A stretch of 64,000 nucleotides of DNA from Patescibacteria group bacterium (GCA_038063735.1 JBBTUN010000012.1:1595-65594), one strand, 5' to 3'. Positions 1,383-38,304 are shown, numbered from the stretch's first letter. Made by a program: numbers and translations. The notes: a model not told the origin generated them from the sequence alone.

Positions 1383-4300
1383 ATGGAAGAAAAACGTTCA
1401 TATTTGGATCAGCTGCAATTTGATCCAAAATTAGCCCAAAGCGTAGTTGCAAAATATCTTACAAATTTTAGGTATGTTCTTCTACTAATAATTGCCATAA
1501 CAGTTGCGGGTGTTTTCAGTTTTTTAAATTTGCCAAGAAGACTAAATCCCCAGGTAAACATTCCAATCGTCTCTGTTACTACCCCTCTTCTTGGTGCATC
1601 CCCCGAAGACGTTGAATCATTAATCACCATTCCAATAGAAGACAAAATCGCCGGCCTTGAAGGCGTCAACACCATTGCGTCTACATCTCTTGATAATTTT
1701 TCGGCAGTTTCTGTCCAGTTTCAAAGCGGCACAAGTCCGGATAAAGCCAAAGACAATGTGCAATCGGCAGTTGACACAATTACAAATCTTCCCAACCAAG
1801 CAAAAACTCCAAACGTTCAAAAACTGGATTTCGAAAACCAGCCTGTTTGGACATTTCTCATAACTTCAAATCAGGACGAAGCAAGTCTTATGCGCTTCGG
1901 CGAAAACCTAAAAGATAGACTGGAAAGGTTATCCTCGGTAAAGCAGGTAAACATCGCAGGTTCAGAAGAAGAAGAAATTCAAGTCTTCGTTAAACCTAGT
2001 GTGCAAAAAGATTACAATATAGATCCCCAAACCATATCCCGTGCTATTCAGGCAAGTATCCACGCCCAACCTGCCGGCAACCTAAATACCGAAAATTCGT
2101 CTTTTGCCCTAACTATCGATCCAACCACAAAATCGCTTGACGAGCTTCGCGATATCAATATAAATGTGGGCACACAAATCGTAAAGCTAAGTGATGTCGC
2201 AACAATTTCCGTTAGATCCAAACCAAATCAACCAAGGGCCTACTACGCAACAAATGACGCATTACCGCAAAAAGCGATCACATTTTCAGTCTTCAAAACC
2301 GATTCCGCAAATATTGACAAGACAGTAAACGCTGTTAAAGCTGAAACTGGCAAAGCTCTTGGCGAAAACCCGAACAAATTCAATTTACTCACCATTATTA
2401 ACCTTTCGGATGAAGTCGACAAACAATTTTCCGATTTGCTCAGTAGCTTTCGGGATACAATTCTTTTGGTCATAGTCGTCCTTTTCCTGTTTTTAGGTAT
2501 CCGCCAGGCACTGATCGTCGCCTTCTGTATACCTCTTTCATTTTTAGTTTCATTTACTGTCATGCAAACAGTAGGTTTAACACTAAACTTTTTGTCGCTG
2601 TTTTCGCTAATTTTGGCACTAGGCCTGTTAGTCGACGATGCAATAGTCGTTGTAACTGCAACAACTGCCTATTGGAGAAGTCGAAAATTTACACCCAATG
2701 AAACCGGTTTACTTGTGCTTCGGGATTTTATAGTCCCCATTTGGTCAACAACTATAACGGCTGTCTGGGCTTTTTTACCGCTACTTGTAGCATCCGGAAT
2801 AATTGGAGAATTCATTAAATCAATCTCTATTGTTGTCTCCGCAACTCTTCTGGCATCAACCGCAATCGCAATACTAATTACGCTGCCCATGATGATGGTT
2901 TTCCTAAAACCCGACTTCCCAAACAGAGTAAAGCTTATGTTCTGGTTTTTATTGTTTCTAGTGCTCCTCGGTGTAGTTGTCACCCTTAGCCTGAAAAGCC
3001 CTCTTTTACCAATAAATATTGTCACGGCAATAGTGCTTGCCATTGTCGGCTTTAAACTCCGGCACCAGTTGTTGCAGGAAACAAACAACTGGCTAAGTAA
3101 AATATTTGATTCAAGAGCCCTAACAACAAGGGTCGCAAAAATTATGGACTCCGGGGTGATCGATTCAACTAAATTTGCAACTCGCTACCAAAATTTAATA
3201 GATAAGGTTCTATCATCAAGATCCTTTAGAAACAAAACTTTAATAATAGTTGTCGTTTTTGCTATCTTTTCTTATCTACTCCTACCACTGGGTTTTGTAA
3301 CTAACGAGTTTTTTCCAAAAACCGATCAGGGCACACTCTATGTTTCTGTGGAACTCCCTGCCGGCACCAATTTAGACACAGCCGAAAAAGAGGCCAAAAC
3401 CTTGGTTGAGGACCTCAGGAAAACAGAAGGCGTCAAATATGCAACCGCAGAAACGGGCCGCTCAATCTCAACCGAAGATTTCTTTGGACCCCAAAGCGCC
3501 ACTAATAACATTCTTTTTACCTTAGTATTGCCCGACAAAAAAGAGCGAAAAGTGAAATCAATCGAAATTGCCCAAGTGCTTCGCGATAAATACGAAAACA
3601 ATTATTACAGGGGCAAACTTTCCGTAATTGAACAATCCAGCGGCCCTCCCGCGGGAGCAGACTTGCAAATCAAGTTTTTAGGCGACGACCCCAAAGCCCT
3701 GAACGCCCAGGCAGACAAAGTCGTTTCCTATCTACGAAGCCGTCAAGCCATAAATAACATCCAAAAATCAATCAAAAGCGGTGGTGGAAAAATTGTTTTT
3801 GTTCCCGACAGAGTTAAGATTGCTCAAACCGGTATTACCGAATCGGAACTTGGTTCTCAACTAAGAACATATGCAAGCGGGTTTACGCTGGACTCCAATG
3901 CAAAAATAAGCGGCAAGGAAAAAGATATTGTTTTCCGGACAAATTCAAGCTTCCAGCAACCGGAGTCCCTTGGATCATTAAATATAAAAACGCAAACAGG
4001 TGATTTTCCACTATCCGCGCTGGGAACTCTCGAATTTAAACCAACTGCAACCCGCATTACCAGAGAAGATCAAAAACGCACACTTTCGGTAACAGCGGGT
4101 GTCGTAAACAGCAAACAGATCGCAGCAGAAAATAAAAACCTTCAGGATTTTGCAACAAAACTAAGCCTGCCGACCGGCTACGAATGGAAAATCGGTGGGG
4201 TAAACGAAGAGAATCAAAAGAGTGTCAATTCAATCTTCCAGGCCATGACAATCGCATTTATCTTGATAGCAGCCACAATGGTCATCCAATTCGGTTCGTA

Positions 4301-7272: not shown

Positions 7273-8154
7273 CTACGAGCACCCTGGTATAGGGAATTGT
7301 GTAATTATCTTAAAGTAGAATTGATTAATAAGTGTTGCATCTGCTGCACTTACTACATTATTACCGTTAACGTCTGCTGCTTTAAAAGCATCCGTGCCAC
7401 GAACCAGTGGCGGAGTTACACCAAAGACAGTTTGTTTGACCAGAGTTGCATCATTCGCGTTTACAATATTATTATTGTTAACATCTCCATACTTTTTCAA
7501 CACACCCGCAGAATTGATAAAAGTGACACAAGAGATTGGGGGAGGTGTCGGAATTGGTGTTGGAGTCGGAACTGGGGTTGGCAAGGAACAGCCAGTCGTC
7601 GTAAAAGTCCCTGTTTGGGAATACCACCAAATATTATTGCTCCAACTAGGGTCTTTTGTTCTTATCCTCCAATAGTAGCTTGTGTTTGCTGGTAAATTGA
7701 CAATCGTTTTTGAATCATTTCGACCAAATGGAGCCGTGTTATAACTTCCTATGCGTACAGAAGAATACGAATCACCGGGTGTAAAATTATTATTGTTTAC
7801 CGAATAATCCAGCCAAACTTCCTCATCCCGCATGTCAATATTTTTCCAGCTTACAGTGGCATCTACATTACCATTATTGCAAACCATGGAAGGCACTCCA
7901 TCATTTGAAAGTGCCGCTCCGCCAGTTTCCCCAAAGGAATCTTCATCGCTCGAGTCACTGCTTGTGCAACTAATCCGGCATCTACCGCTGACATAATGCG
8001 TGCTGATAGCCATATTGTTAAAAATTACTTCCTCGCCAGATCTAAAAGCATACTTATTAAATACCTTCTTAACACAAGCAGCCCCTAACCCTTGACAGTC
8101 CCCATAACCAGGACTATTGCTAGAACTAGAACTAGGATAAACATAAAAAGTCAT
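7273..8154 (-). CDS. FN3-like plus dockerin-type-I-repeat protein
   Basis: Pro/Thr linker 'PTPVPTPTPIPTPPP'. C-terminal duplicated Ca-binding dockerin-like repeats ('GDVNNNNIVNANDATLVKQ', 'ADVNGNNVVSAADATLINQFYF'). No signal peptide of its own. Start overlaps the stop of the upstream ORF by ATGA. Confidence 0.5.
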   Translation of the reverse strand: MTFYVYPSSSSSNSPGYGDCQGLGAACVKKVFNKYAFRSGEEVIFNNMAISTHYVSGRCRISCTSSDSSDEDSFGETGGAALSNDGVPSMVCNNGNVDATVSWKNIDMRDEEVWLDYSVNNNNFTPGDSYSSVRIGSYNTAPFGRNDSKTIVNLPANTSYYWRIRTKDPSWSNNIWWYSQTGTFTTTGCSLPTPVPTPTPIPTPPPISCVTFINSAGVLKKYGDVNNNNIVNANDATLVKQTVFGVTPPLVRGTDAFKAADVNGNNVVSAADATLINQFYFKIITQFPIPGCS

Positions 8155-8584: not shown

Positions 8585-9565
8585 CTACAACGCCACAGCC
8601 GGGCAAGCAGGAAACATTGCAATAGTCTTAAAGTAGAATTGCAAAATCAAGTCTGAATCTGCTGTGGTTATGGTTCCATTACCATCAACATCTGCCGCTT
8701 TCTTGGCATCTCCCAAAAGCGCCGGGTCTATGCCGGCGACGCTTCTTTTAACAAGGGTCGCATCACCTGCAGTTATATATTTATTATTGTTAACATCTCC
8801 ATACTTTTGCACTTTACCGGCCGAATTTGTAAAAGTGCAGGCGGTTGATGACGGCGTGGGTTTTGGAATAAAACTATTAACGTCTGGTCGTTCACTTACA
8901 GAAATCGTTACAGGTTCCGAACATTTCTGCAGAAAGTAACTGGCAACAATGTTTAAATCCTCTATCGCAATAGCGCCATTTGCGTCCATATCGTAACGTT
9001 TGTTATACTTTGCATCCCCTGTTTTAGTATTGTAAGAATTCGCAACCTTGGTCATATCCAAAATAGTCACTGCGCGGTCTCCATCAACATCCACGGGCCA
9101 GGCATTAACTCCACAAACTTTATTAGGACTCGTACCTATGTATCCCTCAACTTTATCCGAAAAACCGTCACGGTCGGTGTCTGAGTTTACAATCAGATCA
9201 CACTTTTGCCCAAAAAACCCGGAAGCTATATCCGTGTCCAGTTTCGATATCAAATCGTCGCCATTAAGGTCATACGCTTTGTTATAGTTAGCATCTCCCG
9301 CCTTCGTTCCATTTGCATTTGCCATTAATGTAATGTCAAGTATGGTTACTGCCCCGTCATGGTCAAAGTCTACCTGAGAACAAGAAACAGCGGTTAATTT
9401 TGGGGTTAGCGCGAACGGAGTCTTACCGGGATTATTAGCAATGACTGCCCAAACCGCAATGCCGACAACAGCAATAATCAAAATTGCCAAAAGCAGAAAT
9501 GAATTTTTGGGTTTAGATCTAATTCTAGCGGAACGCGAAACTTTTCTATTGGCAGCTTTTTTCAC
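8585..9565 (-). CDS. signal-anchored protein with multiple dockerin-like Ca-binding repeats
   Basis: N-terminal TM. Repeats 'DFDHDGAVTILDITLMANANGTK...DLNGDDLISKLD' and 'DVDGDRAVTILDMTKVANS...DMDANGAIAIEDLNIV'. C-terminal module 'GDVNNNKYITAGDATLVKR...ADVDGNGTITTADSDLILQFYF' is paralogous to 7273..8154. Confidence 0.5.
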   Translation of the reverse strand: MKKAANRKVSRSARIRSKPKNSFLLLAILIIAVVGIAVWAVIANNPGKTPFALTPKLTAVSCSQVDFDHDGAVTILDITLMANANGTKAGDANYNKAYDLNGDDLISKLDTDIASGFFGQKCDLIVNSDTDRDGFSDKVEGYIGTSPNKVCGVNAWPVDVDGDRAVTILDMTKVANSYNTKTGDAKYNKRYDMDANGAIAIEDLNIVASYFLQKCSEPVTISVSERPDVNSFIPKPTPSSTACTFTNSAGKVQKYGDVNNNKYITAGDATLVKRSVAGIDPALLGDAKKAADVDGNGTITTADSDLILQFYFKTIAMFPACPAVAL

Positions 9566-9630
9566 AGGTACAACTCAAGTATCGATCCACAAATGCCGCA
9601 TTGTCAAGCCCTTAAGAGTCAACGTGGAGA

Positions 9631-9969
9631 TTATTTATTGCAAACAACTGGGTCAGCAGAAGAAACGGCAGCTAAGTCTTTGGAATTTATCCAACCGTCG
9701 CGATCCAGGTCGAATTTAGAGTTATTTTTGGCCCCCTCTACTTTTCCAAAACCGCCAATAGCTATATCAAGGTCTCGGCTATCAACACGGCTATCCACAT
9801 TAAAATCGCACTTATTAACTACAACAGGCACTTGCGCACTTACCTGTCTGCCTTCCCTGCCGGCTTGAGATAGTAAAACTACCCCTGCAGAAAGCGGAAT
9901 TACCATAAAGGCACAAAGGGCCAAAAGAAGCCACGTGCCTTTTTGATATTTGTTAAACGCGTGTTCCAC
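9631..9969 (-). CDS. small secreted dockerin-like-repeat protein
   Basis: Signal peptide followed by one 'DFNVDSRVDSRDLDIAIGG...DLDRDGWINSKDLAAV' module. Confidence 0.4.
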   Translation of the reverse strand: MEHAFNKYQKGTWLLLALCAFMVIPLSAGVVLLSQAGREGRQVSAQVPVVVNKCDFNVDSRVDSRDLDIAIGGFGKVEGAKNNSKFDLDRDGWINSKDLAAVSSADPVVCNK

Positions 9970-18483: not shown

Positions 18484-20102
18484 TTTGAAAATATTTCCTG
18501 AGCTATTTTCTCAAGCTCATCAGCTTTTACATCGACCACATCGCTTCTACCGACTGCGACAGTTGGGGTGCTTTCCCGTTTTGCCAAAATAAACTTTAGC
18601 CGAACCCGTCTGCCAATTGTTTCCTCCATTTTGCTATCTAACATATGCATTATTTTTGGCTCTTCAAGCTTGTCCTTATGAAATTTATAAAAAACTTCAA
18701 GTGTTAAACTTTCCCCATCAAAACCAAACGGTTTGGTAGATCTGAGCAAAGCAACAACATGGGCATTCAGTGGCCTAACTCTATTTAAGAATTCGCTCCA
18801 GTTTTTTTCAACCTCCACAAGACCTTTCCCCCCACTCCTGGGCCTTATTTCCATTTTGACATCGTCATCCTGTTCTTCCTTTGCCTGTAGTACACTCGAT
18901 GATTCTGTATGTTTTACTGCCTCTGATACTTTTGACACATTTGACTCATTTACTACCCTTACTCCAGCCTCTCCTATAAACTTGCATATTGCCAAAACAA
19001 GTGGAATTTGCGCCATCGGAAAAATCTTGATCTCCCCGTCGGCAATAATCAGTAAACGTATTAGTGTCTGCAATTTTTCAAATTCGATACTGTCGGCAAG
19101 TTGCTTAAGATCTGCCTGGCTATTCTCGTCCAACTCTTCAAAATTGTCAGCACCAATTTTAAAATACAAAACCTTTTCCAAATACAAGACTGTTTGCCTT
19201 ATAAATAAAGAGATGTCCACCCCCTCTTCAACAAGATCTTCTACAAAAAGTGCGGCAGGCTTGATTTCTGATCGAATTAACATTTCGACAAAGTTATAGA
19301 TCTGGTTTTTGCCACTAACTTTTGCAATTGCCGAAACATCTTCTTGCTTTATTTCACCGTTTGCACTTAACTGGTCCAAAAGCGAAACAGCATCCCTAAA
19401 CGATCCGTCGGCCACTTCTGCAATTTGACTCGCGCTGCCCTGGTCCAGTTTTATTTTCTCGCTCCTGGCAATTCTGGTAACAGCACTGGCAATATCAACC
19501 TTGCTTGCTCTTTTAAAATTAAACTTCTGCAGGCGCGATAAAATTGTTGCTGGTAGCTTGCTGTATTCGGTCGTTGCCAAAATAAAAATAGCGTGTTTTG
19601 GGGGTTCCTCGAGAGTTTTCAGGAGTGCATTGAACGCTTCCGTAGTTAACATATGCACCTCGTCGATAATATAAACCTTATAAGGAGAAGAAACTGGAGA
19701 GAGCTTAACCTTTTCCCGCAAATCTCGTATTTCGTCGATCCCGCGATTAGAAGCCGCGTCTATTTCGACAAGATCCAAAGACGAACCGTTTGTTATCGCA
19801 ATACAACTTTGGCACTTATTGCATGGTTCCCCAAAACGGTTAATAGTTAATGGTTCATGGTCAATAGATTCTTTTCCGTCCTTTCTTCTGTGAACTGCCA
19901 ACTTTGAACGGTAAACTTCACAATTAATCGCCTTTGCCAAAATCCTGGCTGTGGAAGTTTTCCCCGTACCCCGCGTGCCATAAAATAAATAAGCATGACC
20001 AATTTTCCCGCTTGTTAACTGGCTCTCAAGTGTTCTTTTAACCTCTTCCTGCCCAATAAGCTCGCCAAGCGTTTGAGGTCTATATTTTCTATAAAAAACC
20101 AT
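18480..20102 (-). CDS. dnaX: DNA polymerase III subunit gamma/tau
   Basis: AAA+ Walker A 'GTRGTGKTSTARILAKAINC', Zn module 'CNKCQSC'. The C-terminal part carries a repeat-derived 'SNVSKVSEAV' insert. Confidence 0.9.
   Translation of the reverse strand: MVFYRKYRPQTLGELIGQEEVKRTLESQLTSGKIGHAYLFYGTRGTGKTSTARILAKAINCEVYRSKLAVHRRKDGKESIDHEPLTINRFGEPCNKCQSCIAITNGSSLDLVEIDAASNRGIDEIRDLREKVKLSPVSSPYKVYIIDEVHMLTTEAFNALLKTLEEPPKHAIFILATTEYSKLPATILSRLQKFNFKRASKVDIASAVTRIARSEKIKLDQGSASQIAEVADGSFRDAVSLLDQLSANGEIKQEDVSAIAKVSGKNQIYNFVEMLIRSEIKPAALFVEDLVEEGVDISLFIRQTVLYLEKVLYFKIGADNFEELDENSQADLKQLADSIEFEKLQTLIRLLIIADGEIKIFPMAQIPLVLAICKFIGEAGVRVVNESNVSKVSEAVKHTESSSVLQAKEEQDDDVKMEIRPRSGGKGLVEVEKNWSEFLNRVRPLNAHVVALLRSTKPFGFDGESLTLEVFYKFHKDKLEEPKIMHMLDSKMEETIGRRVRLKFILAKRESTPTVAVGRSDVVDVKADELEKIAQEIFSK
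18915..18960 (-). repeat. dispersed repeat family 1 copy (GTATCAAAR 9-mer tandem), in frame in dnaX
   Basis: 'tgatacttttgacacatttgactcatttac'. Encodes SNVSKVSEAV. Confidence 0.6.
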
Positions 20103-24128: not shown

Positions 24129-25280
24129 TCAGGAGGCAGCAATCGTTTTTTTAACCAAATCCAATGTTTTTGCCTGAAAAATAGAAACTGCCAGGTACCG
24201 TTCCATATCTACTTTTTGCTCCGGCGTTAAATCCGTCTGGTTCACACCTTTTCCGGCATTTTCTACTTCCTCACGGCTAACTTCAATTTTTGCACCTGTT
24301 CCGATTTCGTCCAAAATCAATGTCGCTTTAACATTCTTCTCGGCCTGTACTCTCCACTTTGCCCGCAGCGCATCAACAGTCGTATTTTCATCCCTCAAAA
24401 AATCCTCCAGTTTTTTACCACTCGATTCTACCTGTTGGTTCAAACGCACCATAATCCGGTTTATCTCGTCATCAACCATTATGTCCGGCACATCAACCTC
24501 GCCAATCTTAGCAAGCTCCTCAAAAATTTCTTCTTCAAATTTAGCCTCTACCTGGTCCGTAACCAGTGTCTCCAAATCTTTTCGAACCAATTCCTTCAGG
24601 TGCAAAAGATCCCTTGCCCCTATTGCTTTGGCAAATTCGTCGTCAATTTTCCCCTCAGACTTCTTCTCGTCAACCTTATTCTCATCTTTAAGAAAAATCT
24701 TCTCACCATGCGCATCATAAATAAACTTTCCTTGCCCTTCCGTAGCTTTAGCGAAGGAGGGTTTACCTGCTTCCTCTTCTTCATTTGATACATTTGATAC
24801 TTTTGACTCGTTCGAAACCTTTTGCTTAACCCATGCCTCATAAATATTTTTAATGGACTGTGTAACATCTTCTTCCGTTACCTCTTTGGCTTTAATTTTT
24901 TTAACCTTCATTGCTTTCCAGTCTCCAAGTTTTACTTTTGATCTTTCTGTTAAAGTTGCCACAAAAGAAAAAGGTGCACTCTTTGACAAAGAATCCACAG
25001 CAACCTTGGGTTTTGTAATGGGAATAATATTTTCTTTGTCAAATATATCGGAAAGATGTTGGGAAACCAAAAAATTAGCTGCCTCGTTTAAGATTTTGGT
25101 TGCCCCAAGTTTGTCCTCGACCATAGTAATCGGAACATTGCCGGGCCTAAAACCATCTATTTTGACATCTTTGCCAAGCTCAGTAAGCGCATGCTCGTAA
25201 GCCTTATCAAAATCCGCCTTCGAAACATCGACTTTAACCTCAACCTTCCCTTTTTCGCCACGGGTAATTGTGTGCTGCAT
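24129..25280 (-). CDS. tig: trigger factor
   Basis: N-terminal ribosome-binding domain 'GFRPGNVP' motif, about 383 aa. Contains a repeat-derived 'SKVSNVSNEEEE' insert. Confidence 0.85.
   Translation of the reverse strand: MQHTITRGEKGKVEVKVDVSKADFDKAYEHALTELGKDVKIDGFRPGNVPITMVEDKLGATKILNEAANFLVSQHLSDIFDKENIIPITKPKVAVDSLSKSAPFSFVATLTERSKVKLGDWKAMKVKKIKAKEVTEEDVTQSIKNIYEAWVKQKVSNESKVSNVSNEEEEAGKPSFAKATEGQGKFIYDAHGEKIFLKDENKVDEKKSEGKIDDEFAKAIGARDLLHLKELVRKDLETLVTDQVEAKFEEEIFEELAKIGEVDVPDIMVDDEINRIMVRLNQQVESSGKKLEDFLRDENTTVDALRAKWRVQAEKNVKATLILDEIGTGAKIEVSREEVENAGKGVNQTDLTPEQKVDMERYLAVSIFQAKTLDLVKKTIAAS
24781..24815 (-). repeat. family 1 copy, in frame in tig
   Basis: 'tttgatacatttgatacttttgactc'. 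Encodes SKVSNVSNEE. Confidence 0.6.
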
Positions 25281-29570: not shown

Positions 29571-30509
29571 TTAAATATTTGTTTTAGAAACAGGCGGTGT
29601 TACTTTTTTGACTTCTTCAACTATTTCCGTCACCTTTTGCTCATTCGTCCCCTTTGGTCCCTCTGCAGCCCTTGACTCATTTGCTTGCCCTGAGCCCGAG
29701 CGAAGGGATACTTTTGATACCTCTTCCCCGCCTGTCACCTTTCCTTTAGCCAGTTCTTCCTTTGCCTTTTCTTTTGCCTGCTCCCCGGCAAGGGCAATCT
29801 TTTGTTGCGCGCTCTTTTTATCAAACGCCTCTTTTCCAACTCGATAAGCGTCAGCTATCGCGTTTGTCACAATCTCGATAGCCTTGATTGCATCATCATT
29901 GCCGGGTACTGGATATGTAATCAAAGAAAGATCGGCATTTGTGTCACAAATTGCAATGGATGGAACTCCCCGCTTAACAGCCTCGCGGCAGGCATTTTCT
30001 TCCCTCTTAACATCAATGACAAAAAGCGCATCGGGAAGCTTGTCCATATTCTCGACTCCACCATAAAAGCGGGTGAGCTTTGCAATATCCCGATCTATCA
30101 AAAGAAGTTCTTTTTTGGTCCTATCGCTAAATTCTCCGGATTCCTTTTTTGTCCTTAAATCTTTAAGCTTTCTAATGTTTTTCGTGGTCTGCTCAAAATT
30201 CGTGAGCAAGCCCCCTATCCAGCGCTCTGCAATGTACATTGCGCCGCTTTTGGTAGCAGCATCTACAACAATACTTCTTGCCTGTTTTTTAGAACCCAAA
30301 AAGATAATCGTTCCGCCGTTTGCCCCGACTTGTTTAACAAATTCACACGCTTCCTCTAACTTTTTAACAGTGTGCGCCAGATCAATTACATGGACTCCAT
30401 CCCGTGCGCCAAAAATAAACTGGCCCATTTTTGGGTTCCACCTGCGAACCTGATGACCAAAATGGACACCAGCCTCCAAAAGTTCCTGCATCGTTGGTAA
30501 CTTACTCAT
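29571..30509 (-). CDS. rpsB: 30S ribosomal protein S2 with low-complexity C-terminal extension
   Basis: 'LLEAGVHFGHQVRRWNPKM' S2 signature. The C-terminal tail includes a repeat-encoded 'EEVSKVSLRSGSGQANES'. Confidence 0.9.
   Translation of the reverse strand: MSKLPTMQELLEAGVHFGHQVRRWNPKMGQFIFGARDGVHVIDLAHTVKKLEEACEFVKQVGANGGTIIFLGSKKQARSIVVDAATKSGAMYIAERWIGGLLTNFEQTTKNIRKLKDLRTKKESGEFSDRTKKELLLIDRDIAKLTRFYGGVENMDKLPDALFVIDVKREENACREAVKRGVPSIAICDTNADLSLITYPVPGNDDAIKAIEIVTNAIADAYRVGKEAFDKKSAQQKIALAGEQAKEKAKEELAKGKVTGGEEVSKVSLRSGSGQANESRAAEGPKGTNEQKVTEIVEEVKKVTPPVSKTNI
29672..29722 (-). repeat. family 1 copy with palindromic core, in frame in the rpsB tail
   Basis: 'ttgcttgccctgagcccgagcgaagggatacttttgatacc'. 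Encodes EEVSKVSLRSGSGQANES. Confidence 0.7.
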
Positions 30510-31074: not shown

Positions 31075-32775
31075 TCACTTCCTTCTAATAGAACCTTTTG
31101 CAGCTCCTATTTTTCTGTCTATCCTTTTTTCGCTTTCTCTTCTTGCCAAATCATAAGATTTATAATCAACAAACTTAAGCGCAAAAACTAAGCTCGGGTG
31201 GACTTTCTTTACCGCCTCAACTTTTAAATGCTCAACATGTCGGTAGTCCGGATGCCCTTGCGGTCCGGTCCTAAGCTCCGCCTCCCACGCCAGTTCCCGC
31301 AAATTTTCCCACTGGTACCAACGCATTCTATTACCCATCATTACTACGTACTGCGCTTGATCCGGATATTTTTTTGCGATTTTTTTATAAAACTTGTCAA
31401 TTTTATTTGCTGCATCAACATATGGTTTATCAAGCTTTGCCCAAACTAAATCCGGCGGAACATCAAACCCCAACTCTGTTGTAAACCGTTGCCTCTCCTG
31501 CGTCAGCATCCTGTGCCTGTGCAAATCGCGGTAAGCACCAAAGTTTGCAATTATGTCGAATTTATAATAGGTATTTTCAAAAGCGCGCACCAACCGGTGC
31601 TGCCTAACCTGCCGCTTGCCAACAACCTTTTTGATAATTAAAAGTTTTTCCCGCGCAGTTAGCTTTTCAACCTGCTCCTTTATCTGGGAAAACGAAACCG
31701 TCGCGTATTTATATAAAAGGCTCGCCACAATTCTATCTTCGGCATCACTATCCCACTCCACAAGTTCCACATCCTGGGTCTTTGATACATTTGATACCTT
31801 TGATACTTTTGATACCAGTCCCTCTAACGCCTTTTCTGTTTTAGAAACATACTTTTGGTAAATTTTCCCCCGAGGGCTGGTTGCCCTCTCCACCATCGAT
31901 GGGATAACCTGCATCAGTTCCTTTTGGGCCGCTTTTCCAAGTTCCCTGATTTCATAAATAGGAGATGCCAAACATTTGGTTATTACATATTCAAACGCCT
32001 GTCCCACACCAAAAAAGCCAACATTCGTTAAAGTTCCAGCCGGCAAATATGCGCGAAGCACGTCATAGGCTTTAGCGTTTATCGTTTCCCTGTATGCCCT
32101 ATCCGTTTGGTCTTTTCCCTGGACAAACTTTTTTCGGAGTATTTTAGAGAGTGGTTCAAGCGACTGTGAATAACGGGAAAAGAGCATATTCATAAGGCGC
32201 TTATACTCCGCACCATAAGAAGATTTAACAAGATCCGGATCCATAAAACATTGCCACCAGCCGCCAATTTTTGTATTAAAAGCAACATATCGCGTCGATT
32301 TCTCCAAGGGGGCAAAACCAATCCGAAAATCCTCCAAAGTTTTGGTTGCAATCTGCGAAACGCCTTCTAAAAATAAATGCGCACCGGCCATTTGCGCAAT
32401 CGAATCATCGCCATATGCAGCCAACCATCTGGCGAAAAAATCGCGCGCGCGCCTGCTGTTTACAACTGCCTCCCATCCTCCATGGCTATGCAGATAATCA
32501 ACAAAAGAGGTCAGCTCCGTCTTCATCACTTCGGCCTCCCTGATTGATTTCTTTTCCGCACCTTCCAAATTGGGTTCCAAAATCGGCTTTATATACTCGT
32601 CATAAAATAATCGCCTGACACCTTTTGTCGATCTGGAATATCGGGACGCAAGCGCCCCCAAAATTTCACTTGGCAAATACTTTGCAGCAAAAACATTCCT
32701 GTCCAAATTTGTAAAAAAGGGGGAAATGTACCAAGCCTCTTCCTTCGTAAATTTTTCAGCTTGAGAACTAATCAT
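31075..32775 (-). CDS. thyX: FAD-dependent thymidylate synthase ThyX (long, about 566 aa)
   Basis: ThyX 'RHR' flavin/dUMP motif 'YRDLHRHRMLTQERQ' and an N-terminal 'ALASRYSRS'-like segment. Double-length relative to canonical ThyX. Contains an in-frame 'LVSKVSKVSNVSKTQ' repeat insert. Confidence 0.7.
   Translation of the reverse strand: MISSQAEKFTKEEAWYISPFFTNLDRNVFAAKYLPSEILGALASRYSRSTKGVRRLFYDEYIKPILEPNLEGAEKKSIREAEVMKTELTSFVDYLHSHGGWEAVVNSRRARDFFARWLAAYGDDSIAQMAGAHLFLEGVSQIATKTLEDFRIGFAPLEKSTRYVAFNTKIGGWWQCFMDPDLVKSSYGAEYKRLMNMLFSRYSQSLEPLSKILRKKFVQGKDQTDRAYRETINAKAYDVLRAYLPAGTLTNVGFFGVGQAFEYVITKCLASPIYEIRELGKAAQKELMQVIPSMVERATSPRGKIYQKYVSKTEKALEGLVSKVSKVSNVSKTQDVELVEWDSDAEDRIVASLLYKYATVSFSQIKEQVEKLTAREKLLIIKKVVGKRQVRQHRLVRAFENTYYKFDIIANFGAYRDLHRHRMLTQERQRFTTELGFDVPPDLVWAKLDKPYVDAANKIDKFYKKIAKKYPDQAQYVVMMGNRMRWYQWENLRELAWEAELRTGPQGHPDYRHVEHLKVEAVKKVHPSLVFALKFVDYKSYDLARRESEKRIDRKIGAAKGSIRRK
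31779..31816 (-). repeat. family 1 copy (3.5 tandem 9-mers), in frame in thyX
   Basis: 'tttgatacatttgatacctttgatacttttgatacc'. Encodes LVSKVSKVSNVSK. Confidence 0.7.
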
Positions 32776-33439
32776 CTAAGCTCATATTCCCGTCACAGAT
32801 TTCTTTCTTCTTCAAAACTTCCAAAACCTCTTTCGCGATTTCACCTTTTGTTTTCGTCCCATCCAAAACGTAAAAAGAGAATTCTTTTGCTTGTTTCAAG
32901 TAATTGTCCCGAACTTTCTCTAAAAAACTTTGCCTCTCAAAAAGTTCTTTTGAACCCCTCGAGCTTTCCATACGCTTCATCGCAACAGAAACAGGGGTAT
33001 CAATTAAAAATGTTGCAGATGGCATCGGAAAATTTTTACCAAGCTCCCGCAGCCACTTACCATCCAAATTCAATTCACCATATGCCAAAGTCGAGAAAAA
33101 GTACCTGTCGGAAATAACAGTTTTCCCTGCGCGGGTAGAAGGCAAAATCAATTTATCCAGATGGTCTGCCCTGTCCGCGCTATACATAAGCTGCAAAGTT
33201 TCCCAAGAAAACTTCAGTTCATGCTTAAGCGCGCGCCTTATTAACTGACCAACTGGGCCATCCGTCGGCTCACAAGTCTTTATAACTTTTTTGCCTTTTG
33301 ATTTTAAGTAATTAAAAAGAAGACCTGTCTGCGTAGTAGAACCCGCTCCATCAATCCCTTCAAAAACAATAAGCGCAGCTTTTCTGCGAATAAATTTACC
33401 GCTCGAATCCTTAGCGGTGTGCGGTTTACTTTTTGCCAT
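32768..33439 (-). CDS. tmk: thymidylate kinase
   Basis: P-loop 'IVFEGIDGAGSTTQ' and DR(Y/F) motif 'SDRYFFS'. Confidence 0.85.
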   Translation of the reverse strand: MAKSKPHTAKDSSGKFIRRKAALIVFEGIDGAGSTTQTGLLFNYLKSKGKKVIKTCEPTDGPVGQLIRRALKHELKFSWETLQLMYSADRADHLDKLILPSTRAGKTVISDRYFFSTLAYGELNLDGKWLRELGKNFPMPSATFLIDTPVSVAMKRMESSRGSKELFERQSFLEKVRDNYLKQAKEFSFYVLDGTKTKGEIAKEVLEVLKKKEICDGNMSLDD

Positions 33440-34844
33440 TTGTTGCCTTGTCTATTTTAGAAGCAACAGCAAGGCGTGATCCAGAATATCTGTCAGATCT
33501 CGAACCTTCATACTTCATTTTTACCGGAGCAGCTAATTTTTCAAAAGTAAACGCGCATATTGGCATACCACAATACAATATTGCTGGCTTTGGCCCTAAG
33601 TTCCCGAGCTCCAAAACAGGCGCCCCGTTCCAGCCCGGATCAAACCTTGCAGCCGTCGAATGCACTAAAATTCCAAGCCGGGCAAGCGAACTTTTCCCCT
33701 CAAGCCTGCCCAAAATGTCCGGAGCCAATTTCAAAACTTCAGAAGTCGAAGCAATCGCAAACGCACCCGGTTCCAAAATAAACGGATCGCCGTTGGTAAG
33801 ATTGATTTCTTCCATCGCATCCTCTGGTAAACCACGCCTTGTGTCTATAAACCGATAGGCACCGGACCTAAACAGTTTAATATTCCCACCCAAATGAAAA
33901 TCGATAGAAACCTGGTCGATATTATCTTTCCAGTTGGCGGGCAGCGGCGAAATTTTGATATCGCCTTTCTCTACCGCTTCTTCGATTAACCAGTCCGGCA
34001 ATATACCTGTCATATTTTTACTATTTTCTTGTTGCTTATTCGCAGAAAAGCTCTGCTTATTCGTAGAAAAGCTCTGCTTATCTCTTGTCTCTTGTTGCTT
34101 CTTGCTTATTGCTTGTCTCTTATTCACCATATGGTCATAAACAATCTGGCTCCATGTCTCCATTTTTTTGAAATGGCGACCCAGTTCATCTACGGTCATC
34201 ATTGTACCCGATTTATGCTCGTCTCGGACATTAATTTCACTGCTATCCCCAGACAACATTATTACAAGTCCTACATGCACCAACCCAACATCATTAGCGT
34301 CGTGGTTTAAAATCCCCAAAAACTTAGCCGTATATTTTCCCTTATAATCTATCTCTTCTTCAAACTCCCGCTTTGCCCATTCCATCACTTCATCACCTTT
34401 GATACCTTTGATACTCTTGATACCTTTGACGTCTTTTAGATTTATATGTCCCCCAACACCAATAGAATACATATTAGCCAAGCGTTTATCCGTATGCGTT
34501 CCTTTTCTCTGCATCGCTAAAATTTTCCCACCTGCCTCAAAAATCAAATAAGGAATAACCTGTTTCCACTTGGGGTCACTTTCCACCTCGCCACGTGCCA
34601 TAAACTTATGGCTTTTTGTGATTACTTTTAAATACTTAGGAAGATTTTCAGAGCGTATCCCATTCCAAATCTCGCCGTCAAAAAGTTCCGTCCGCGAAAC
34701 AACCATCACCCGTTCGGCTTCCTTGCCCACCAAAACTTTCTTGACATCCATAGCTTTAGCGACGGATGTAGTGACGGCGGGTTTACCCTGAAGAACTTTC
34801 TTTTGAGATTTTTTCGGCATCAGAATTTTCGGGGCAGAGGTCAA
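33426..34844 (-). CDS. dcd: fusion protein: N-terminal NUDIX hydrolase domain plus C-terminal dCTP deaminase (Dcd/dUTPase-fold) domain
   Basis: Nudix box 'GGHINLKD...EWAKREFEEEIDY', interrupted by a repeat-encoded 'VKGIKSIKGIKGD' insert. K/Q-rich linker. C-terminal 'ILPDWLIEEAVEKGDIKISPL...EPGAFAIASTSEVLKL...GWNGAPVLELGNLGPKPA' is a typical dCTP deaminase. Confidence 0.7.
   Translation of the reverse strand: MTSAPKILMPKKSQKKVLQGKPAVTTSVAKAMDVKKVLVGKEAERVMVVSRTELFDGEIWNGIRSENLPKYLKVITKSHKFMARGEVESDPKWKQVIPYLIFEAGGKILAMQRKGTHTDKRLANMYSIGVGGHINLKDVKGIKSIKGIKGDEVMEWAKREFEEEIDYKGKYTAKFLGILNHDANDVGLVHVGLVIMLSGDSSEINVRDEHKSGTMMTVDELGRHFKKMETWSQIVYDHMVNKRQAISKKQQETRDKQSFSTNKQSFSANKQQENSKNMTGILPDWLIEEAVEKGDIKISPLPANWKDNIDQVSIDFHLGGNIKLFRSGAYRFIDTRRGLPEDAMEEINLTNGDPFILEPGAFAIASTSEVLKLAPDILGRLEGKSSLARLGILVHSTAARFDPGWNGAPVLELGNLGPKPAILYCGMPICAFTFEKLAAPVKMKYEGSRSDRYSGSRLAVASKIDKATNGKK
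34024..34125 (-). repeat. repeat family 2 (purine-rich GCAACAAGARACAAG / tandem 23-mer), in frame in the NUDIX-Dcd linker
   Basis: 'gcttattcgcagaaaagctctgcttattcgtagaaaagctctgcttatctcttgtctcttgttgcttcttgcttattgcttgtctc'. Encodes KQQETRDKQSFSTNKQSFSANKQ. Confidence 0.55.
34396..34432 (-). repeat. family 1 copy, in frame in the Nudix box of the NUDIX-Dcd fusion
   Basis: 'cctttgatacctttgatactcttgatacctttgac'. Read in another frame, it encodes VKGIKSIKGIKGD. Confidence 0.7.
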
Positions 34845-35300: not shown

Positions 35301-37448
35301 TTACTCCACTTTTTTATCAGATTGCAATTCTTCTTTTCTTTCAATGTTTGATACCTTTGATTTATCCTGAGATTTATCGAAGGACTCGTTTGCTTGCCCT
35401 GAATCTTTTTGAAGGGATACTTTTGATACTTCTCCCTCTGGCTTTGTCCAACTTGCAAAAGTACAATTAGGATAATTGGCGCATCCCCAAAATGGCCTTC
35501 CCCGCTTTGTCCGCTTCATAACAACCTGCCCACCATCCACGGGACAAACAAGCCCGGTCTCTTCGTTCAAAGCCTTCGTATTTTTACAATCAGGAAATCC
35601 GCTGCAAGCCAAAAACTTTCCGTACTTTCCATAGCGTACAACCATAGGCTTGCCACATCTTTCGCAAACATCACCCGTTTCTTCAACTTCTACCTTCATT
35701 TTCTCTGCCTCTTCGGCGACTCTATCTACCTTTTCCTCAAACGGTTTCCAAAACTTCTCCATTAGCTGCGGCATCTCGAGTTTTCCAAGTGCAATATCGT
35801 CAAGTCCGTTTTCCATATCTGCTGTAAACGAGTAATCGATAATATCGCCAAAATATTTTTCCAAAAACTCTATCGTTGTCTTGCCAATAGGCGTTGGCCC
35901 AATTTTCTTGCCTTCCAGCCTTTCGATATAAAGCCTGTCGTACAAAGTAGAAATTGTCGGCGCGTAAGTAGAAGGCCTGCCGATTCCATGCTTTTCCAAA
36001 TCGCGAATAAGAGTTGCCTCTCCGTATCTTGCCGGCGGCTCTGTAAACTTTTGCTGCGGATTAATATTCTTAAAGTCCAGCGGTTCGTCCTTTGCCAAGT
36101 CTGGCAAAACCTGCTCGGTAATCGGCGCTTTGGCATAAACCCTGTACCATCCGTCAAACTTTATTTTCTGACCATTCACCCGAAGCAAATAACTTTTTGC
36201 TTTTTGCTTTTTGCCTTTTGCTTCTACATCTACCGCCGTTTCGTCAACAACTGCTTCTGCCATCTGGCAAACAACCATCCTTTTCCAGATCAACTCATAC
36301 AATTTCCTTTCATCCTGACTTATCACTTGCTTGCCCTGAGCTTGATCGAAGGGTAACTTGTCACTTGTCACTTCTATACTCGTTGGTCTTATCGCTTCAT
36401 GTGCTTCCTGCGCAAGTTTGGATTTTATTTTGTATGCCCGTGACTTTGGCGGTAAATAATTTTTTCCATACTTTGCTTCTATAAATTTACGCACGGCGCT
36501 AACCGCTGCCGGCGCCAAATTAACAGAATCGGTTCTCATATAAGTAATCAAACCGTTTTCGTAGAGGCTTTGGGCAACACTCATCGTTCGCTTTGGCACA
36601 AAACCCAAAACATTTGCGGCCCGCTGTTGCAGCGTAGAGGTAGTAAAAGGCGGATTAGGATATTTTTTAACCTCTTTAGATTCAACGGAGGCAACAGTGT
36701 ACTTTGCAGTTTTTAAATCTGCGACAACTTCATCCGCCTGCTTTTGATTTTTAACACTCGCCTTTTTCCCGTCAACTTTCTGAAGTGTCACCGTAAAGAT
36801 TTCACCCTCCAACACCTTTGATACCTCTACCTCAACCACCCAATATTCCTCGCTCTTAAACCCCTCTATCTCCCGTTCGCGCTCAACAACCAACCGCAAA
36901 GCAACAGATTGCACCCTACCAGCGCTGAGTCTACTTTTAACTTTTTTCCAAAGTAGTGGCGAAAGTTTATAACCGACAAGCCTGTCCAGCACCCTTCTTG
37001 CTTGCTGCGCCTCAACTAAATTCTGGTCGATACTTCGCGGATGCCCAAAAGCAGCAAGCACCGCATCTTTTGTAATTTCATGGAAAACTACCCGCTGCAC
37101 ATTTCGCTTAGATGCCGGAGTTTTAGATTTTGCGTCTATTACCTTTAAGAGATTCCAGGCTATTGCTTCGCCTTCGCGGTCAGGATCCGGTGCAAGGTAT
37201 AAATGACTAACACCTTCCGTCGATTTAACCAGCTGGTTAACCATTTTTATTTTGTTTTTAGGAATTACGTATTTAGGTTTAAAACCATGATCCACATCTA
37301 CCCCAAACTCACCTTTGGGCAAATCCCGAACGTGTCCCATAGAAGCAATAATCTGGTAATCTTTCCCCAAAAACTGACTTAACGTACGAGCTTTGGTTGG
37401 GCTTTCTACTATTACAAGATTTTTTGACATAATTATTTTAGGTATCAA
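35301..37448 (-). CDS. topA: DNA topoisomerase I
   Basis: Toprim N-terminus 'LVIVESPTKARTLSQFLG...ASMGHVRDLP', active-site region 'ITYMRTDS', C-terminal C4 zinc ribbons. Carries at least three in-frame repeat inserts. Confidence 0.9.
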   Translation of the reverse strand: MIPKIIMSKNLVIVESPTKARTLSQFLGKDYQIIASMGHVRDLPKGEFGVDVDHGFKPKYVIPKNKIKMVNQLVKSTEGVSHLYLAPDPDREGEAIAWNLLKVIDAKSKTPASKRNVQRVVFHEITKDAVLAAFGHPRSIDQNLVEAQQARRVLDRLVGYKLSPLLWKKVKSRLSAGRVQSVALRLVVEREREIEGFKSEEYWVVEVEVSKVLEGEIFTVTLQKVDGKKASVKNQKQADEVVADLKTAKYTVASVESKEVKKYPNPPFTTSTLQQRAANVLGFVPKRTMSVAQSLYENGLITYMRTDSVNLAPAAVSAVRKFIEAKYGKNYLPPKSRAYKIKSKLAQEAHEAIRPTSIEVTSDKLPFDQAQGKQVISQDERKLYELIWKRMVVCQMAEAVVDETAVDVEAKGKKQKAKSYLLRVNGQKIKFDGWYRVYAKAPITEQVLPDLAKDEPLDFKNINPQQKFTEPPARYGEATLIRDLEKHGIGRPSTYAPTISTLYDRLYIERLEGKKIGPTPIGKTTIEFLEKYFGDIIDYSFTADMENGLDDIALGKLEMPQLMEKFWKPFEEKVDRVAEEAEKMKVEVEETGDVCERCGKPMVVRYGKYGKFLACSGFPDCKNTKALNEETGLVCPVDGGQVVMKRTKRGRPFWGCANYPNCTFASWTKPEGEVSKVSLQKDSGQANESFDKSQDKSKVSNIERKEELQSDKKVE
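35346..35430 (-). repeat. family 1 composite copy (9-mers plus two palindromic cores), in frame in the topA C-terminus
   Basis: 'tttgatacctttgatttatcctgagatttatcgaaggactcgtttgcttgccctgaatctttttgaagggatacttttgatac'. Encodes EVSKVSLQKDSGQANESFDKSQDKSKVS. Confidence 0.7.
36186..36228 (-). repeat. family-2-like A/G-rich tandem (GCAAAAA)n, in frame in topA
   Basis: 'ctttttgctttttgctttttgccttttgcttc'. Encodes EAKGKKQKAKS. Confidence 0.35.
36321..36372 (-). repeat. family 1 palindromic-core copy, in frame in topA
   Basis: 'cacttgcttgccctgagcttgatcgaagggtaacttgtcacttgtcac'. Confidence 0.6.
36812..36832 (-). repeat. family 1 short copy in topA
   Basis: 'cacctttgatacctctacc'. Encodes VEVSKVLEG. Confidence 0.4.
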
Positions 37449-37477
37449 AAGTCACAAAAGTATCATAAGTATCAAAT
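37441..37477 (+). repeat. family 1 copy, inverted orientation, intergenic between topA and the four-helix-bundle gene
   Basis: 'ggtatcaaaagtcacaaaagtatcataagtatcaaatg'. Confidence 0.6.
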
Positions 37478-37485
37478 GAAAACAA

Positions 37486-37842
37486 CTAGAAAGAGTTGGA
37501 ATACTTATTTAGAAGATACCCCACTTCCCCTTTCTTTAGGTCAAGAACTTTATACTCCCCCTGCAGAACAAAACCCAACTCTAGTGAAACCTCAAGGTCT
37601 GATTCTAATTCGAAAAGAGATCCAACTGCAATCTCCAAAAATCTTTTCTTATCAAGTTTTGACCTCCTGGAATAACCCTCAGCAATATTAGAAAGCACAG
37701 AAACTGCTGCTCTTCTCATCTGACTTTTCAGACCAAACTCTTCACTTTTTGGAAACTTTGTCGTCACATTGTAAACCATTACAACCAAGTCTTTAGCTCT
37801 TTGCCAAACAATAAGCTTCTGATAACCCTTCGGTTCACTCAT
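37486..37842 (-). CDS. four-helix-bundle protein (23S rRNA intervening-sequence protein / Avd-like family)
   Basis: 'LIVWQRAKDLVVMVYNVTTKFPKSEEFGLKSQMRRAAVSVLSNIAEGYSRRS...FLEIAVGSLFELESDLEVS' matches the four-helix-bundle family. Free-standing here and flanked by inverted repeat copies. Confidence 0.7.
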   Translation of the reverse strand: MSEPKGYQKLIVWQRAKDLVVMVYNVTTKFPKSEEFGLKSQMRRAAVSVLSNIAEGYSRRSKLDKKRFLEIAVGSLFELESDLEVSLELGFVLQGEYKVLDLKKGEVGYLLNKYSNSF

Positions 37843-37866
37843 TTTCTTTATTATACATTTGCAGGC

Positions 37867-37977
37867 GTTTGATACCTTTGATACTCTTGACCCCTTTTGT
37901 ACTTTTCTAACTTTTGTCCCTTGATATACAAACTCACTTTTGATACCTTTGATACGTTTGACGCCCTTGATACTTTC
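37867..37977 (-). repeat. family 1 long copy, intergenic between the four-helix-bundle gene and the csaA-like gene
   Basis: 'tttgatacctttgatactcttgacccc...cttttgatacctttgatacgtttgacgcccttgatac'. The reverse complement begins GGTATCAAAAGT, as does the left copy. Confidence 0.65.
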
Positions 37978-37983
37978 TTAAAT

Positions 37984-38304
37984 ATGGCCACCATTGACGA
38001 TTTCCAAAAATTGGCAATAAAAATCGGCACTATTCGCTCTGCGGAAAAAGTAGCAGGTTCCAGCAAACTCTTAAAGCTAGACATTGACCTTGGCCATGAA
38101 AAACGCCAAATCTTAGCTGGCATTGGTGAAAAGTACGACCCTAAAGATCTTAAAGGCAAACAAATCCCAATTTTGGCAAACCTGGATCCAAGAATGATGA
38201 TGGGCCTGGAATCAAACGGTATGATTTTGGCAGTCGACGTAAATGGCGAGCCGGTACTCTTGCACCCCGATGAAAAAATCGCCAACGGCACCCAAGTCAG
38301 ATAA
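37984..38304 (+). CDS. tRNA-binding protein (CsaA/Myf, EMAP-like domain)
   Basis: 'KIGTIRSAEKVAGSSKLLKLDIDLGHEKRQILAGIGEKYDPKDLKGKQIPILANLDPRMMMGLESNGMILA' is the classic CsaA/MetRS C-terminal-domain pattern. Start taken as the internal M 'MATIDD'; the upstream part of the ORF-track entry is repeat DNA. Confidence 0.7.
   Translation: MATIDDFQKLAIKIGTIRSAEKVAGSSKLLKLDIDLGHEKRQILAGIGEKYDPKDLKGKQIPILANLDPRMMMGLESNGMILAVDVNGEPVLLHPDEKIANGTQVR

Follow-up and report, generated by a model that had tools for sequence, protein, structure and literature searches.

Background

To our knowledge, the intervening sequences (IVSs) of 23S rRNA that bear an open reading frame (ORF), and the S23p or four-helix-bundle (4HB) proteins, have been without a known function or origin since the early 1990s. 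The DNA analysed in this work, referred to as the window, is a stretch of 64,000 nucleotides from a Patescibacteria group bacterium (GCA_038063735.1, JBBTUN010000012.1:1595-65594). It contains a gene of the 4HB family that lies directly upstream of topA, the gene for DNA topoisomerase I, between two inverted arrays of a short tandem repeat. We call the gene together with its two arrays, or arms, the cassette.

The closest described system is the IVS in helix 45 of the 23S rRNA of Coxiella burnetii. It is 428 nt long, and its S23p ORF, which is reportedly decaying and probably untranslated, is preceded by three tandem GACAGAT heptamers whose number varies between strains; the element forms an inverted-repeat stem, and RNase III cleaves this stem at the first repeat (PMC4990558). 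Related ORFs are described in other settings. 23S_rRNA_IVP ORFs are reported in insertions of the 16S and 23S rRNA genes of bacteria of the candidate phyla radiation (CPR) (PMC11270868), and 4HB ORFs inside cas loci (PMC3936711). A further relative in fold is Avd, a protein of diversity-generating retroelements (DGRs), which as a pentamer binds stem-loops of RNA; the RNA of the DGR depends on a long-range duplex in which the 3' end of avd takes part (bioRxiv 10.1101/2023.10.23.563531). In our literature search, outside of which the subscription literature lay, no report connected 4HB genes that are free-standing with tandem arrays on their flanks or with short tandemly repeated repetitive (STRR) sequences.

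The layout of the topA cassette matches that of bona fide 23S IVS elements; the Coxiella IVS, too, has its tandem heptamers within an inverted stem. The results given below show that the gene and its two inverted arrays behave as one unit, co-inherited at a fixed position before topA, and that genes of the 4HB family are commonly flanked by inverted arrays of about four short tandem units, independently of rRNA. The explanation that we favour, with somewhat better than even confidence, is that of a resident IVS-type cassette, in which the 4HB gene sits within two inverted arrays of about four 9-nt units upstream of topA and which would act through an RNA stem.

Results and discussion

The 4HB gene and its inverted arrays

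The repeats around the 4HB gene are inverted arrays of a 9-nt unit (GTATCAAAN / TTTGATACN), with about four units on each side. The parts of the cassette are as follows.

37486..37842, minus strand: four-helix-bundle gene (4HB; 23S rRNA IVS protein / TIGR02436), encoding 118 amino acids, pI 9.3
37442..37477, minus strand: 3' arm of four 9-nt units, on the gene strand ATTTGATAC TTATGATAC TTTTGTGAC TTTTGATAC
37868..37937, minus strand: 4HB-proximal part of the 5' arm, two intact units GTATCAAAG GTATCAAAC (37868-37885) and decayed units
37939..37974, minus strand: distal four-unit array, on the gene strand GTATCAAGG GCGTCAAAC GTATCAAAG GTATCAAAA

Read on the plus strand, the array at 37442-37477 is GTATCAAAA GTCACAAAA GTATCATAA GTATCAAAT. 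The other side begins at 37868-37885 with TTTGATACC TTTGATACT, continues with degenerate units up to 37937, and is followed by a second block at 37939-37974, which reads TTTGATACC TTTGATACG TTTGACGCC CTTGATACT. The decayed units upstream of 37868-37885 include GGGGTCAAGA, GTACAAAAG, GTTAGAAAA and GGGACAAAA. The 3' arm lies between the stop codon of the 4HB gene (37486-37488) and the ATG of topA (37430), about 11 nt short of the latter, and the distal array stops 9 nt before the start codon of a divergent tRNA-binding gene. The two arms are complementary over 35 nt at 77%, with a perfect core of 13 nt, and in the minimum-free-energy fold it is the distal array that pairs with the 3' arm.

Such an abundance of the unit was far above expectation. 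The 12-mer GGTATCAAAAGT, allowing at most one mismatch, occurred at 9 sites against 0.36 expected, the two-unit pattern occurred at 12 sites against 0.06 expected, and arrays of at least three units were found 7 times in the window and not once in 20 shuffles. The initial annotation of the window had described repeats of a scattered family in opposite orientations on the two sides of the gene, and both points were borne out, the 9-nt unit being common to the arms and to the dispersed arrays. Its 111-nt repeat at 37867-37977, on the other hand, is not a single element but two arrays plus decayed units, and the sequence with which both copies were said to begin, GGTATCAAAAGT, is internal to that interval (minus strand, 37947 to 37936).

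The 118-aa protein matched PF05635 (23S_rRNA_IVP) with E=2e-34 and 118.4 bits (cut-off 33.8), and TIGR02436 ('four helix bundle protein') with 110.1 bits (cut-off 24). Its AlphaFold model (monomer, 26 homologues) consists of four long helices with a pLDDT of 96.1. A Foldseek search with this model gave TM scores of 0.93 to 2GSC (Xcc0516), 0.82 to 2RLD (BT_0352) and 0.79 to the DGR protein Avd (4DWL/8UBE), to which the structure-based identity was 11-14%. We concluded that the protein belongs to the PF05635 / TIGR02436 four-helix-bundle (S23p) family, as had been proposed from the sequence alone. The description of it as IVS / Avd-like thus stands in its first half, the IVS models being above their cut-offs; the Avd models stay below theirs, and the link to Avd is only one of fold. 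The crystal structures 2GSC and 2RLD each contain 5 chains per entry, and by analogy the basic 4HB protein is presumably a pentamer. Profile searches found no transposase, integrase or endonuclease domain in the protein, and it had no match among the PADLOC defence-system models, so that a role in defence was rejected. A search for further 4HB genes, run on the 64-kb window, returned this single copy.

The cassette occupies one site upstream of topA

TopA places the window in Candidatus Curtissbacteria (CPR), with best relatives 77-78% identical, and the closest homologues of the 4HB protein are numerous, at 66-80% amino acid identity. The comparison covered 11 carriers of the cassette, namely the window and 10 genomes or contigs (L001, L081, L082, L084, L085, L166, L167, L168, L169 and L170). 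In every one of the 11, the 4HB gene lies directly upstream of topA in the same orientation and both arms are present and inverted. In the 10 other carriers, 3-15 nt (mostly 6-10) separate the end of the 3' arm from the topA start. On its far side the cassette borders on different genes in different carriers, namely the tRNA-binding gene, dprA, a HAD hydrolase gene or others.

The 4HB gene is absent from the topA site in 11 related loci, in which the intergenic region is only about 80 nt long or holds another occupant. No arms were found at the site in the non-carriers L002, L011, L007, L003, L005, L008 and L014; in L002 and L011, about 80 nt without repeat units separate the tRNA-binding gene from topA. 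One leftover unit, GTATCAAAG, was seen in the non-carrier L010, between the topA upstream motif described below and the ATG. Gene and both arms therefore go together and are absent together, as the comparison of related genomes shows, and no relative had the gene at this site without flanking repeats. We concluded that the gene and the two inverted arrays are one co-inherited unit.

The slot upstream of topA is taken by a divergent Trp-repressor-like gene in L007, L003, L005 and L006. In L007 this gene spans 9459-9893 (PF01371, E=2e-13), with direct repeats TAATCTAGATTACTAGACT at about 9446 and about 9905. In L004 (960-990) and L006 (9940-9975), which have no 4HB gene at this place, a different tandem repeat (CAATTGACA / ATTGACATG) stands between the topA motif and the start. 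The intergenic site upstream of topA seems to take up insertions of different kinds readily.

A motif of about 29 nt (cTTGACAnGGATGaTAAAAAnGa..GAGAG) precedes the topA ATG by some tens of bases in non-carriers. The same motif stands immediately before the 5' arm in L082, L085, L166, L168 and L170; therefore, in these five carriers the whole cassette lies between the upstream motif of topA and the topA start. The motif may be a promoter, which would place both arms in one 4HB-topA transcript. A decayed form of it within the degenerate units of the window (about 37902-37933) was considered and judged too weak to claim. In the clade of L082, L085, L166 and L168 the 5' arm overlaps the annotated GTG start of the 4HB gene, giving a putative N-terminal extension (VSEVSEV, VPKVSNV); the true start codon in these four is uncertain.

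A neighbour-joining tree of TopA shows carriers mixed among non-carriers; two of its sister pairs, L001 with L011 and L168 with L008, each join a carrier to a non-carrier. The 4HB sequences form two groups that roughly follow two TopA groups, and no near-identical 4HB copies were found across genomes. We read the pattern as that of a long-resident cassette, which entered before the sampled carriers diverged, has since been inherited with topA and was repeatedly lost or replaced by another allele, arms included, in several lineages.

Selection on the gene and concerted change of the arms

Among 10 4HB orthologues, dN was 0.10-0.30 and dS was above 1 or not computable (saturated). The dN/dS ratio was at most 0.22 where it could be computed, a figure to be taken as an upper bound only, dS being saturated in most pairs. 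The 4HB protein is thus kept by purifying selection. As neutral sites are saturated while four-unit arrays are found in every carrier, the arms must be under selection or be continually regenerated.

The unit itself differs by lineage. The arms are built of GTATCAAA in the window's group, of GTTTCAAA/GTCTCAAA in L082, L166 and L168, of GTAACAAA in L085 and of GTAATTAA in L170, and the two arms of one cassette change together. Because tandem units make the register of an alignment arbitrary, covariation was assessed by a permutation of own-arm against cross-arm duplexes. The duplex energy was lower for arms of the same cassette than for arms from different genomes (the trace was -340.9 and the mean of the permutations -297.9, p=0.006), in a test that ignores phylogeny and in which five carriers have one unit type in common. 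In L085 the arms have changed to GTAACAAA, but the solo arrays of that locus retain GTATCAAA; this pattern argues for a constraint from arm to arm over a genome-wide homogenisation of the repeat.

When the whole cassette was folded as RNA, the arms formed a terminal stem around the ORF; the z-scores were -3.0 for the window and -4.6 for L001. Arm mismatches compatible with G-U pairing favoured the sense strand (84 against 59, p=0.044), a weak signal that agrees with pairing of the arms as RNA in the sense transcript.

The same layout around other 4HB genes

A metagenome scan with the homologue alignment gave 80 diverse 4HB loci at 40-61% identity, of which 74 genes had both flanks. Arrays were defined by a period of 6-11 nt, at least 2.5 copies and a position within 120 nt of the gene. 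Such arrays were present upstream of 49 and downstream of 47 of the 74 genes, and on both sides of 36. The consensus units were reverse-complementary, with at most one mismatch, in 21 of the 36 two-sided loci; examples are AGACCAG/TCTGGTC, AGTGACT/ACTAGTC, GCTTTTC/GCGAAAA, AGTTAACG/CGTTAACT and GGGATCA/TGATCCC. Arrays covered 15.2% of the bases in 4HB flanks against 1.8% elsewhere in the loci. Their periods were mostly 7, 8 or 9 nt, and the median was about 4 copies at any period. In 49 of 79 loci (11.3 expected), a gene's own two flanks paired better with each other than with any of six random cross-locus partners, so that they ranked first among 7 pairings (Wilcoxon p=3e-12). No rRNA was detected with Rfam in any of the 40 4HB loci scanned. 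We concluded that 4HB-family genes commonly lie between inverted arrays of about four short tandem units and that this layout does not depend on rRNA.

Some loci deserve separate mention. In L088, L089, L090, L091, L094 and L097, tRNA genes lie about 60-420 nt from 4HB cassettes, most of them in the same orientation; their nearness suggests that the cassettes favour transcription units of processed stable RNAs. Directly upstream of mreB, L006 has a second, distant 4HB gene (3177-3539, about 51% identity), between inverted runs of AAGCTTN heptamers, and a further partial 4HB match is at 98-307 of the same locus.

Neighbouring genes and the spacer

The genes and sites next to the cassette in the window are listed below.

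35301..37430, minus strand: topA (DNA topoisomerase I; Toprim, Topoisom_bac and zinc-ribbon domains), the gene that follows the cassette in every carrier
37431..37485, minus strand: spacer between the 4HB gene and topA, 55 nt, carrying the 3' arm, without a terminator-like site
37850..37855, minus strand: TATAAT hexamer, putative -10 box, 7 nt upstream of the 4HB ATG
37984..38304, plus strand: divergent free-standing tRNA-binding-domain gene ('csaA-like', MetRS beta-subunit-like), PF01588 E=3e-23

The position of the 4HB gene between topA and this divergent gene agrees with the initial annotation, whose name for the latter, csaA-like, does not hold as well. The protein passes TIGR00399 (methionine-tRNA ligase beta subunit / C-terminal domain; 121.1 bits, cut-off 116.65) and is far under the cut-offs of the CsaA models; judged by these matches, it is better named a free-standing MetRS-type tRNA-binding domain than CsaA. 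The 4HB gene, called free-standing in the initial annotation, is not an isolated gene; it lies in the upstream region of topA with no terminator before that gene. A scan of 37300-38100 for sigma-70 promoters and terminators found no terminator between the two genes, and its one promoter-like match was over the topA start, with nothing convincing in the arrays, on which the scan gives little information. The TATAAT at 37850..37855 would imply a leaderless or near-leaderless 4HB mRNA. The minus-strand ORF at 37851-38291 overlaps the well-supported tRNA-binding gene in antisense and also reads across the arrays, and is therefore spurious, as first thought.

Solo arrays of the same unit

Arrays of the cassette's 9-nt unit also occur by themselves, almost always with exactly four units (36 nt). 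Those in the window are the following.

18921-18956: solo array in dnaX, in frame
24783-24818: solo array in the trigger-factor gene (tig), in frame
31780-31815: solo array in thyX, in frame
34397-34423: solo array in the Nudix-dCTP deaminase fusion gene, in frame
29710-29721 (tail of rpsB), 36817-36824 and 35347-35430 (topA itself): partial, array-derived copies, in frame

All 18 solo arrays of the window and the related loci are oriented as topA is transcribed, and the intragenic ones are sense. They mostly translate as VSK repeats, located in linkers or loops. In the Nudix loop and around residue 205 of TopA, arrays in differing states or frames, or ordinary sequence, are found depending on the genome. 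The density of solo arrays was 0.117 per kb in carrier loci and 0.024 per kb in non-carrier loci, which is about 5-fold (binomial p=0.002, phylogeny ignored). This is an association of solo arrays with carriage of the cassette and not causal proof.

A composite repeat of 54 nt (GACTCRTTTGCTTGCCCTGA...GAAGGG plus array units) has three in-frame copies, at 29674-29727 in the tail of rpsB, 35383-35436 in the tail of topA and 36320-36373 inside topA; they encode variants of '...VSKVSL(Q/R)..SGQANES'. Peptides like its product (TLRQSSGQA) were seen in variable loops of the TopA and Nudix proteins of L008. A Nudix domain and a dCTP deaminase-like domain are fused in one ORF of the window (33426-34844), an arrangement kept across the Curtissbacteria loci examined, and the linker contains a 21-nt tandem repeat (34033-34081) encoding KQSFS(T/A)NKQ. 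Elsewhere in the window are two paralogous type I dockerin genes, at 7273-8154 (E=7e-10) and 8585-9565 (E=4e-20), which have stretches of 56-100 nt at 71-74% identity; one would not expect dockerins in a CPR genome of small size.

The favoured explanation: a probable resident IVS-type cassette

If the favoured explanation is right, the cassette would be transcribed together with topA. For one clade the conserved motif suggests a transcription start upstream of the 5' arm; given such a start, the arms could pair as an imperfect stem of about 35 bp that encloses the 4HB ORF and abuts both start codons. RNase III may then cut this stem as it does in rRNA IVSs, which would separate or tune the expression of 4HB and topA. 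The basic, presumably pentameric 4HB protein might bind the stem or the repeat units, as Avd binds the stem-loops of DGR RNA; Avd is a lead in this respect, by analogy, for how an IVS-type protein could act on its own arms. In the window's subclade the arms may mainly serve as elements that directly precede topA and the divergent tRNA-binding gene.

Several points weigh against this explanation. Co-transcription, the transcription start, the RNA stem, its cleavage by RNase III and protein binding are all predicted steps. The 29-nt motif is unrecognisable in the window's subclade (the window, L001, L084, L169 and partly L081). Moreover, TATAAT is kept 6-7 nt before the 4HB ATG in the window, L001, L084 and L169 despite saturated synonymous divergence. 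Its place between the 5' arm and the ATG suggests a leaderless start past the 5' arm in this subclade, and as the 5' arm may thus be outside the 4HB/topA transcript, there would be no RNA stem there; for the genome of the window this is the chief caveat to a mechanism based on an RNA stem. The stems are imperfect, the arm mismatches comprising 156 transversions and 143 transitions, and the permutation test of arm duplexes has the limit stated with it. Flanking genes of the carrier L001 and the non-carrier L011 are 80-87% identical in nucleotides with no alignable intergenic sequence; therefore, insertion borders, any target duplication and the direction of change cannot be read from this pair. 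Finally, two observations fit a role of each array for the gene next to it. In L170 an array lies beside the tRNA-binding gene without an adjacent 4HB gene, and the arrays of the window's subclade read TTTGATAC toward the start codons, mostly 8-11 nt off. Such a gene-proximal role, at least as a secondary use, is a live rival.

Alternative explanations

The arrays could instead be binding sites of the 4HB protein. In analogy to TRAP, a pentameric ring would sit on about four units, (GUAUCAAAG)4, in RNA or single-stranded DNA, would regulate its own expression and that of topA, and would act on the sense solo arrays in other mRNAs, the pairing of the arms being secondary. We hold this to be possible but unlikely. 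It agrees with the copy number of about 4 whether the unit has 7, 8 or 9 nt, with the lineage-specific sequence of the unit, with the pentameric crystal homologues (2GSC, 2RLD) and the basic character of the protein (pI 9.3), and with the binding of RNA stem-loops by the Avd pentamer. The single orientation of 18 of 18 solo arrays, sense where intragenic, and their roughly 5-fold higher density in carriers (p=0.002) also speak for it; the density comparison, however, ignores phylogeny and other 4HB copies in those genomes, and the orientation cannot be separated from the direction of replication because nearly all host genes are co-oriented. The arms of L085 and L170 have diverged from the unit of the solo arrays, which is unexpected if one protein reads both, and protein binding alone leaves the complementarity of the arms itself unexplained.

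A broader version of this idea joins the 4HB protein and the short tandem arrays into one system, in which the ring would read about four lineage-specific units of 7-9 nt in RNA or single-stranded DNA, the gene would be nested in its own inverted arrays, and the dispersed arrays would be propagated or regulated by the protein. We regard it as distinctly doubtful. If true, it would explain both rRNA IVSs and dispersed repeats of the STRR type, with arrays of a single orientation in rRNA, in leaders and in the coding regions of housekeeping genes (topA, dnaX, tig, rpsB, thyX, Nudix-dcd).

According to another explanation, which appears rather unlikely to us, the arrays serve topA and the divergent tRNA-binding gene independently of each other, as promoter, 5'-untranslated-region or translation-initiation elements, and their inverted geometry is a by-product. 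Both arrays indeed read TTTGATACN four times toward a start codon in the window, L001, L081, L084 and L169, and the gap to the start is mostly 8-11 nt in the window's group (15 nt for topA in L081). In L170 a GTATCAAA array abuts the tRNA-binding gene, another ORF separating it from the 4HB gene. Each array unit contains TTGATA, a near-consensus -35 hexamer, and the unit is widespread outside the cassette. The promoter scan of the arrays was nevertheless unconvincing. In L082, L085, L166 and L168, which have no adjacent tRNA-binding gene, the 5' arm still precedes or overlaps the 4HB start, whereas in L002, L011 and L007, where the tRNA-binding gene is beside topA but the 4HB gene is absent, no arrays stand before either gene. 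Independent elements would also not be expected to change together by lineage, as the arms do, or to recur as inverted arrays around unrelated 4HB genes in many other contexts.

The initial annotation had called the cassette possibly or formerly mobile. A currently or recently active mobile element at the upstream region of topA, with the arrays as terminal repeats and the 4HB protein as mobility factor, is improbable in our judgement, although the cassette structure with its inverted ends is real and IVSs have long been suspected to be mobile (PMC4990558). Carriers and non-carriers alternate on the TopA tree down to the pair L001 and L011 (80-87% nucleotide identity), and 4HB genes are found in unrelated operons such as cas loci (PMC3936711), beside tRNA genes and before mreB in L006. 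Against recent mobility, all 11 carriers have the cassette at one site, it is single-copy in 64 kb, the 4HB groups roughly follow those of TopA with saturated dS and without near-identical copies, and there is no transposase, integrase or endonuclease domain. No target-site duplication was visible at the cassette borders, although empty and filled sites are not alignable.

That the gene is an Avd accessory gene of a DGR, or a remnant of one, is most improbable and was rejected, since the likeness to Avd (PF22296 E=1e-7, NF033474 E=1e-7, TM 0.79 to 4DWL/8UBE) stays below the curated cut-offs (32.6 against 40 and 31.9 against 80 bits, respectively), the neighbours in carriers are topA and other protein-coding genes, and the window has, as initially stated, no reverse transcriptase among its 32 ORFs scanned with Pfam and no long imperfect direct repeats of the template/variable type.

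A location within 23S rRNA, where IVSs lie in helix 25 or 45, was likewise rejected. Rfam gave only one tRNA and no rRNA in the window, in line with the initial annotation, and no rRNA in the carrier loci L001, L081, L082, L084 and L085.

Implications

That the protein is a 4HB protein will not surprise a specialist; what had not been expected is how general the layout is, that it is conserved before topA and that in-frame solo arrays are associated with it. The IVS architecture is common outside rRNA, and one cassette of this kind is under purifying selection before the essential topA gene across a CPR clade. A curiosity of rRNA processing thereby becomes a testable module of protein plus repeat. 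For annotation, a rule follows: cassettes with a gene within inverted arrays are to be spotted, and spurious ORFs read through the arrays discarded.

Comparison with known systems

STRR heptamers of cyanobacteria were reportedly described by Mazel et al. in 1990 and found inside RNase P RNA by Vioque in 1997. The solo arrays resemble them as dispersed arrays of few copies of a 7-9-nt unit, lineage-specific and tolerated inside functional genes, and the 4HB loci L135, L140, L151 and L152 are crowded with STRR-like short arrays. Rickettsia palindromic elements are short repeats that have entered housekeeping genes without breaking the reading frame, in loops or linkers that tolerate them. The solo arrays are like them in being in frame, and differ in being 36 nt long, tandem rather than palindromic, and in one orientation. 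Of the features of transposons and miniature inverted-repeat elements, the cassette has terminal inverted repeats; a mobility enzyme, a target duplication and additional copies or sites were not found.

With Avd of the DGR of Bordetella phage BPP-1, the 4HB protein has in common the basic four-helix bundle; it differs in scoring below the cut-offs of the Avd family models, in its structure-based identity of only 11-14%, and in that the window has no reverse transcriptase, template repeat or variable repeat. The free-standing TIGR02436 genes of PMC3936711 and PMC11270868 belong to the same family and are also small and placed between genes of unrelated operons. Flanking inverted tandem arrays are not described in these two sources, as far as they were read; here the arrays are quantified, and a single orthologous insertion is followed through a clade.

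The closest likeness is to the 23S IVSs of Coxiella and Leptospira, which have a PF05635/TIGR02436 protein, an ORF within an inverted-repeat stem and a sporadic distribution among relatives. The Coxiella IVS is alike also in the short tandem repeats directly before the ORF (a heptamer there, a 9-mer here) and in size (428 nt, against about 430-540 nt for the topA cassette). The topA cassette differs from 23S IVSs in lying between protein-coding genes and not in rRNA. Compared with Coxiella, its ORF is under clear purifying selection instead of decaying, and RNase III excision, which has been shown there, is for the topA cassette a predicted step. Family and architecture were already known, and what is new is an IVS-type 4HB cassette in the upstream region of a protein-coding gene.

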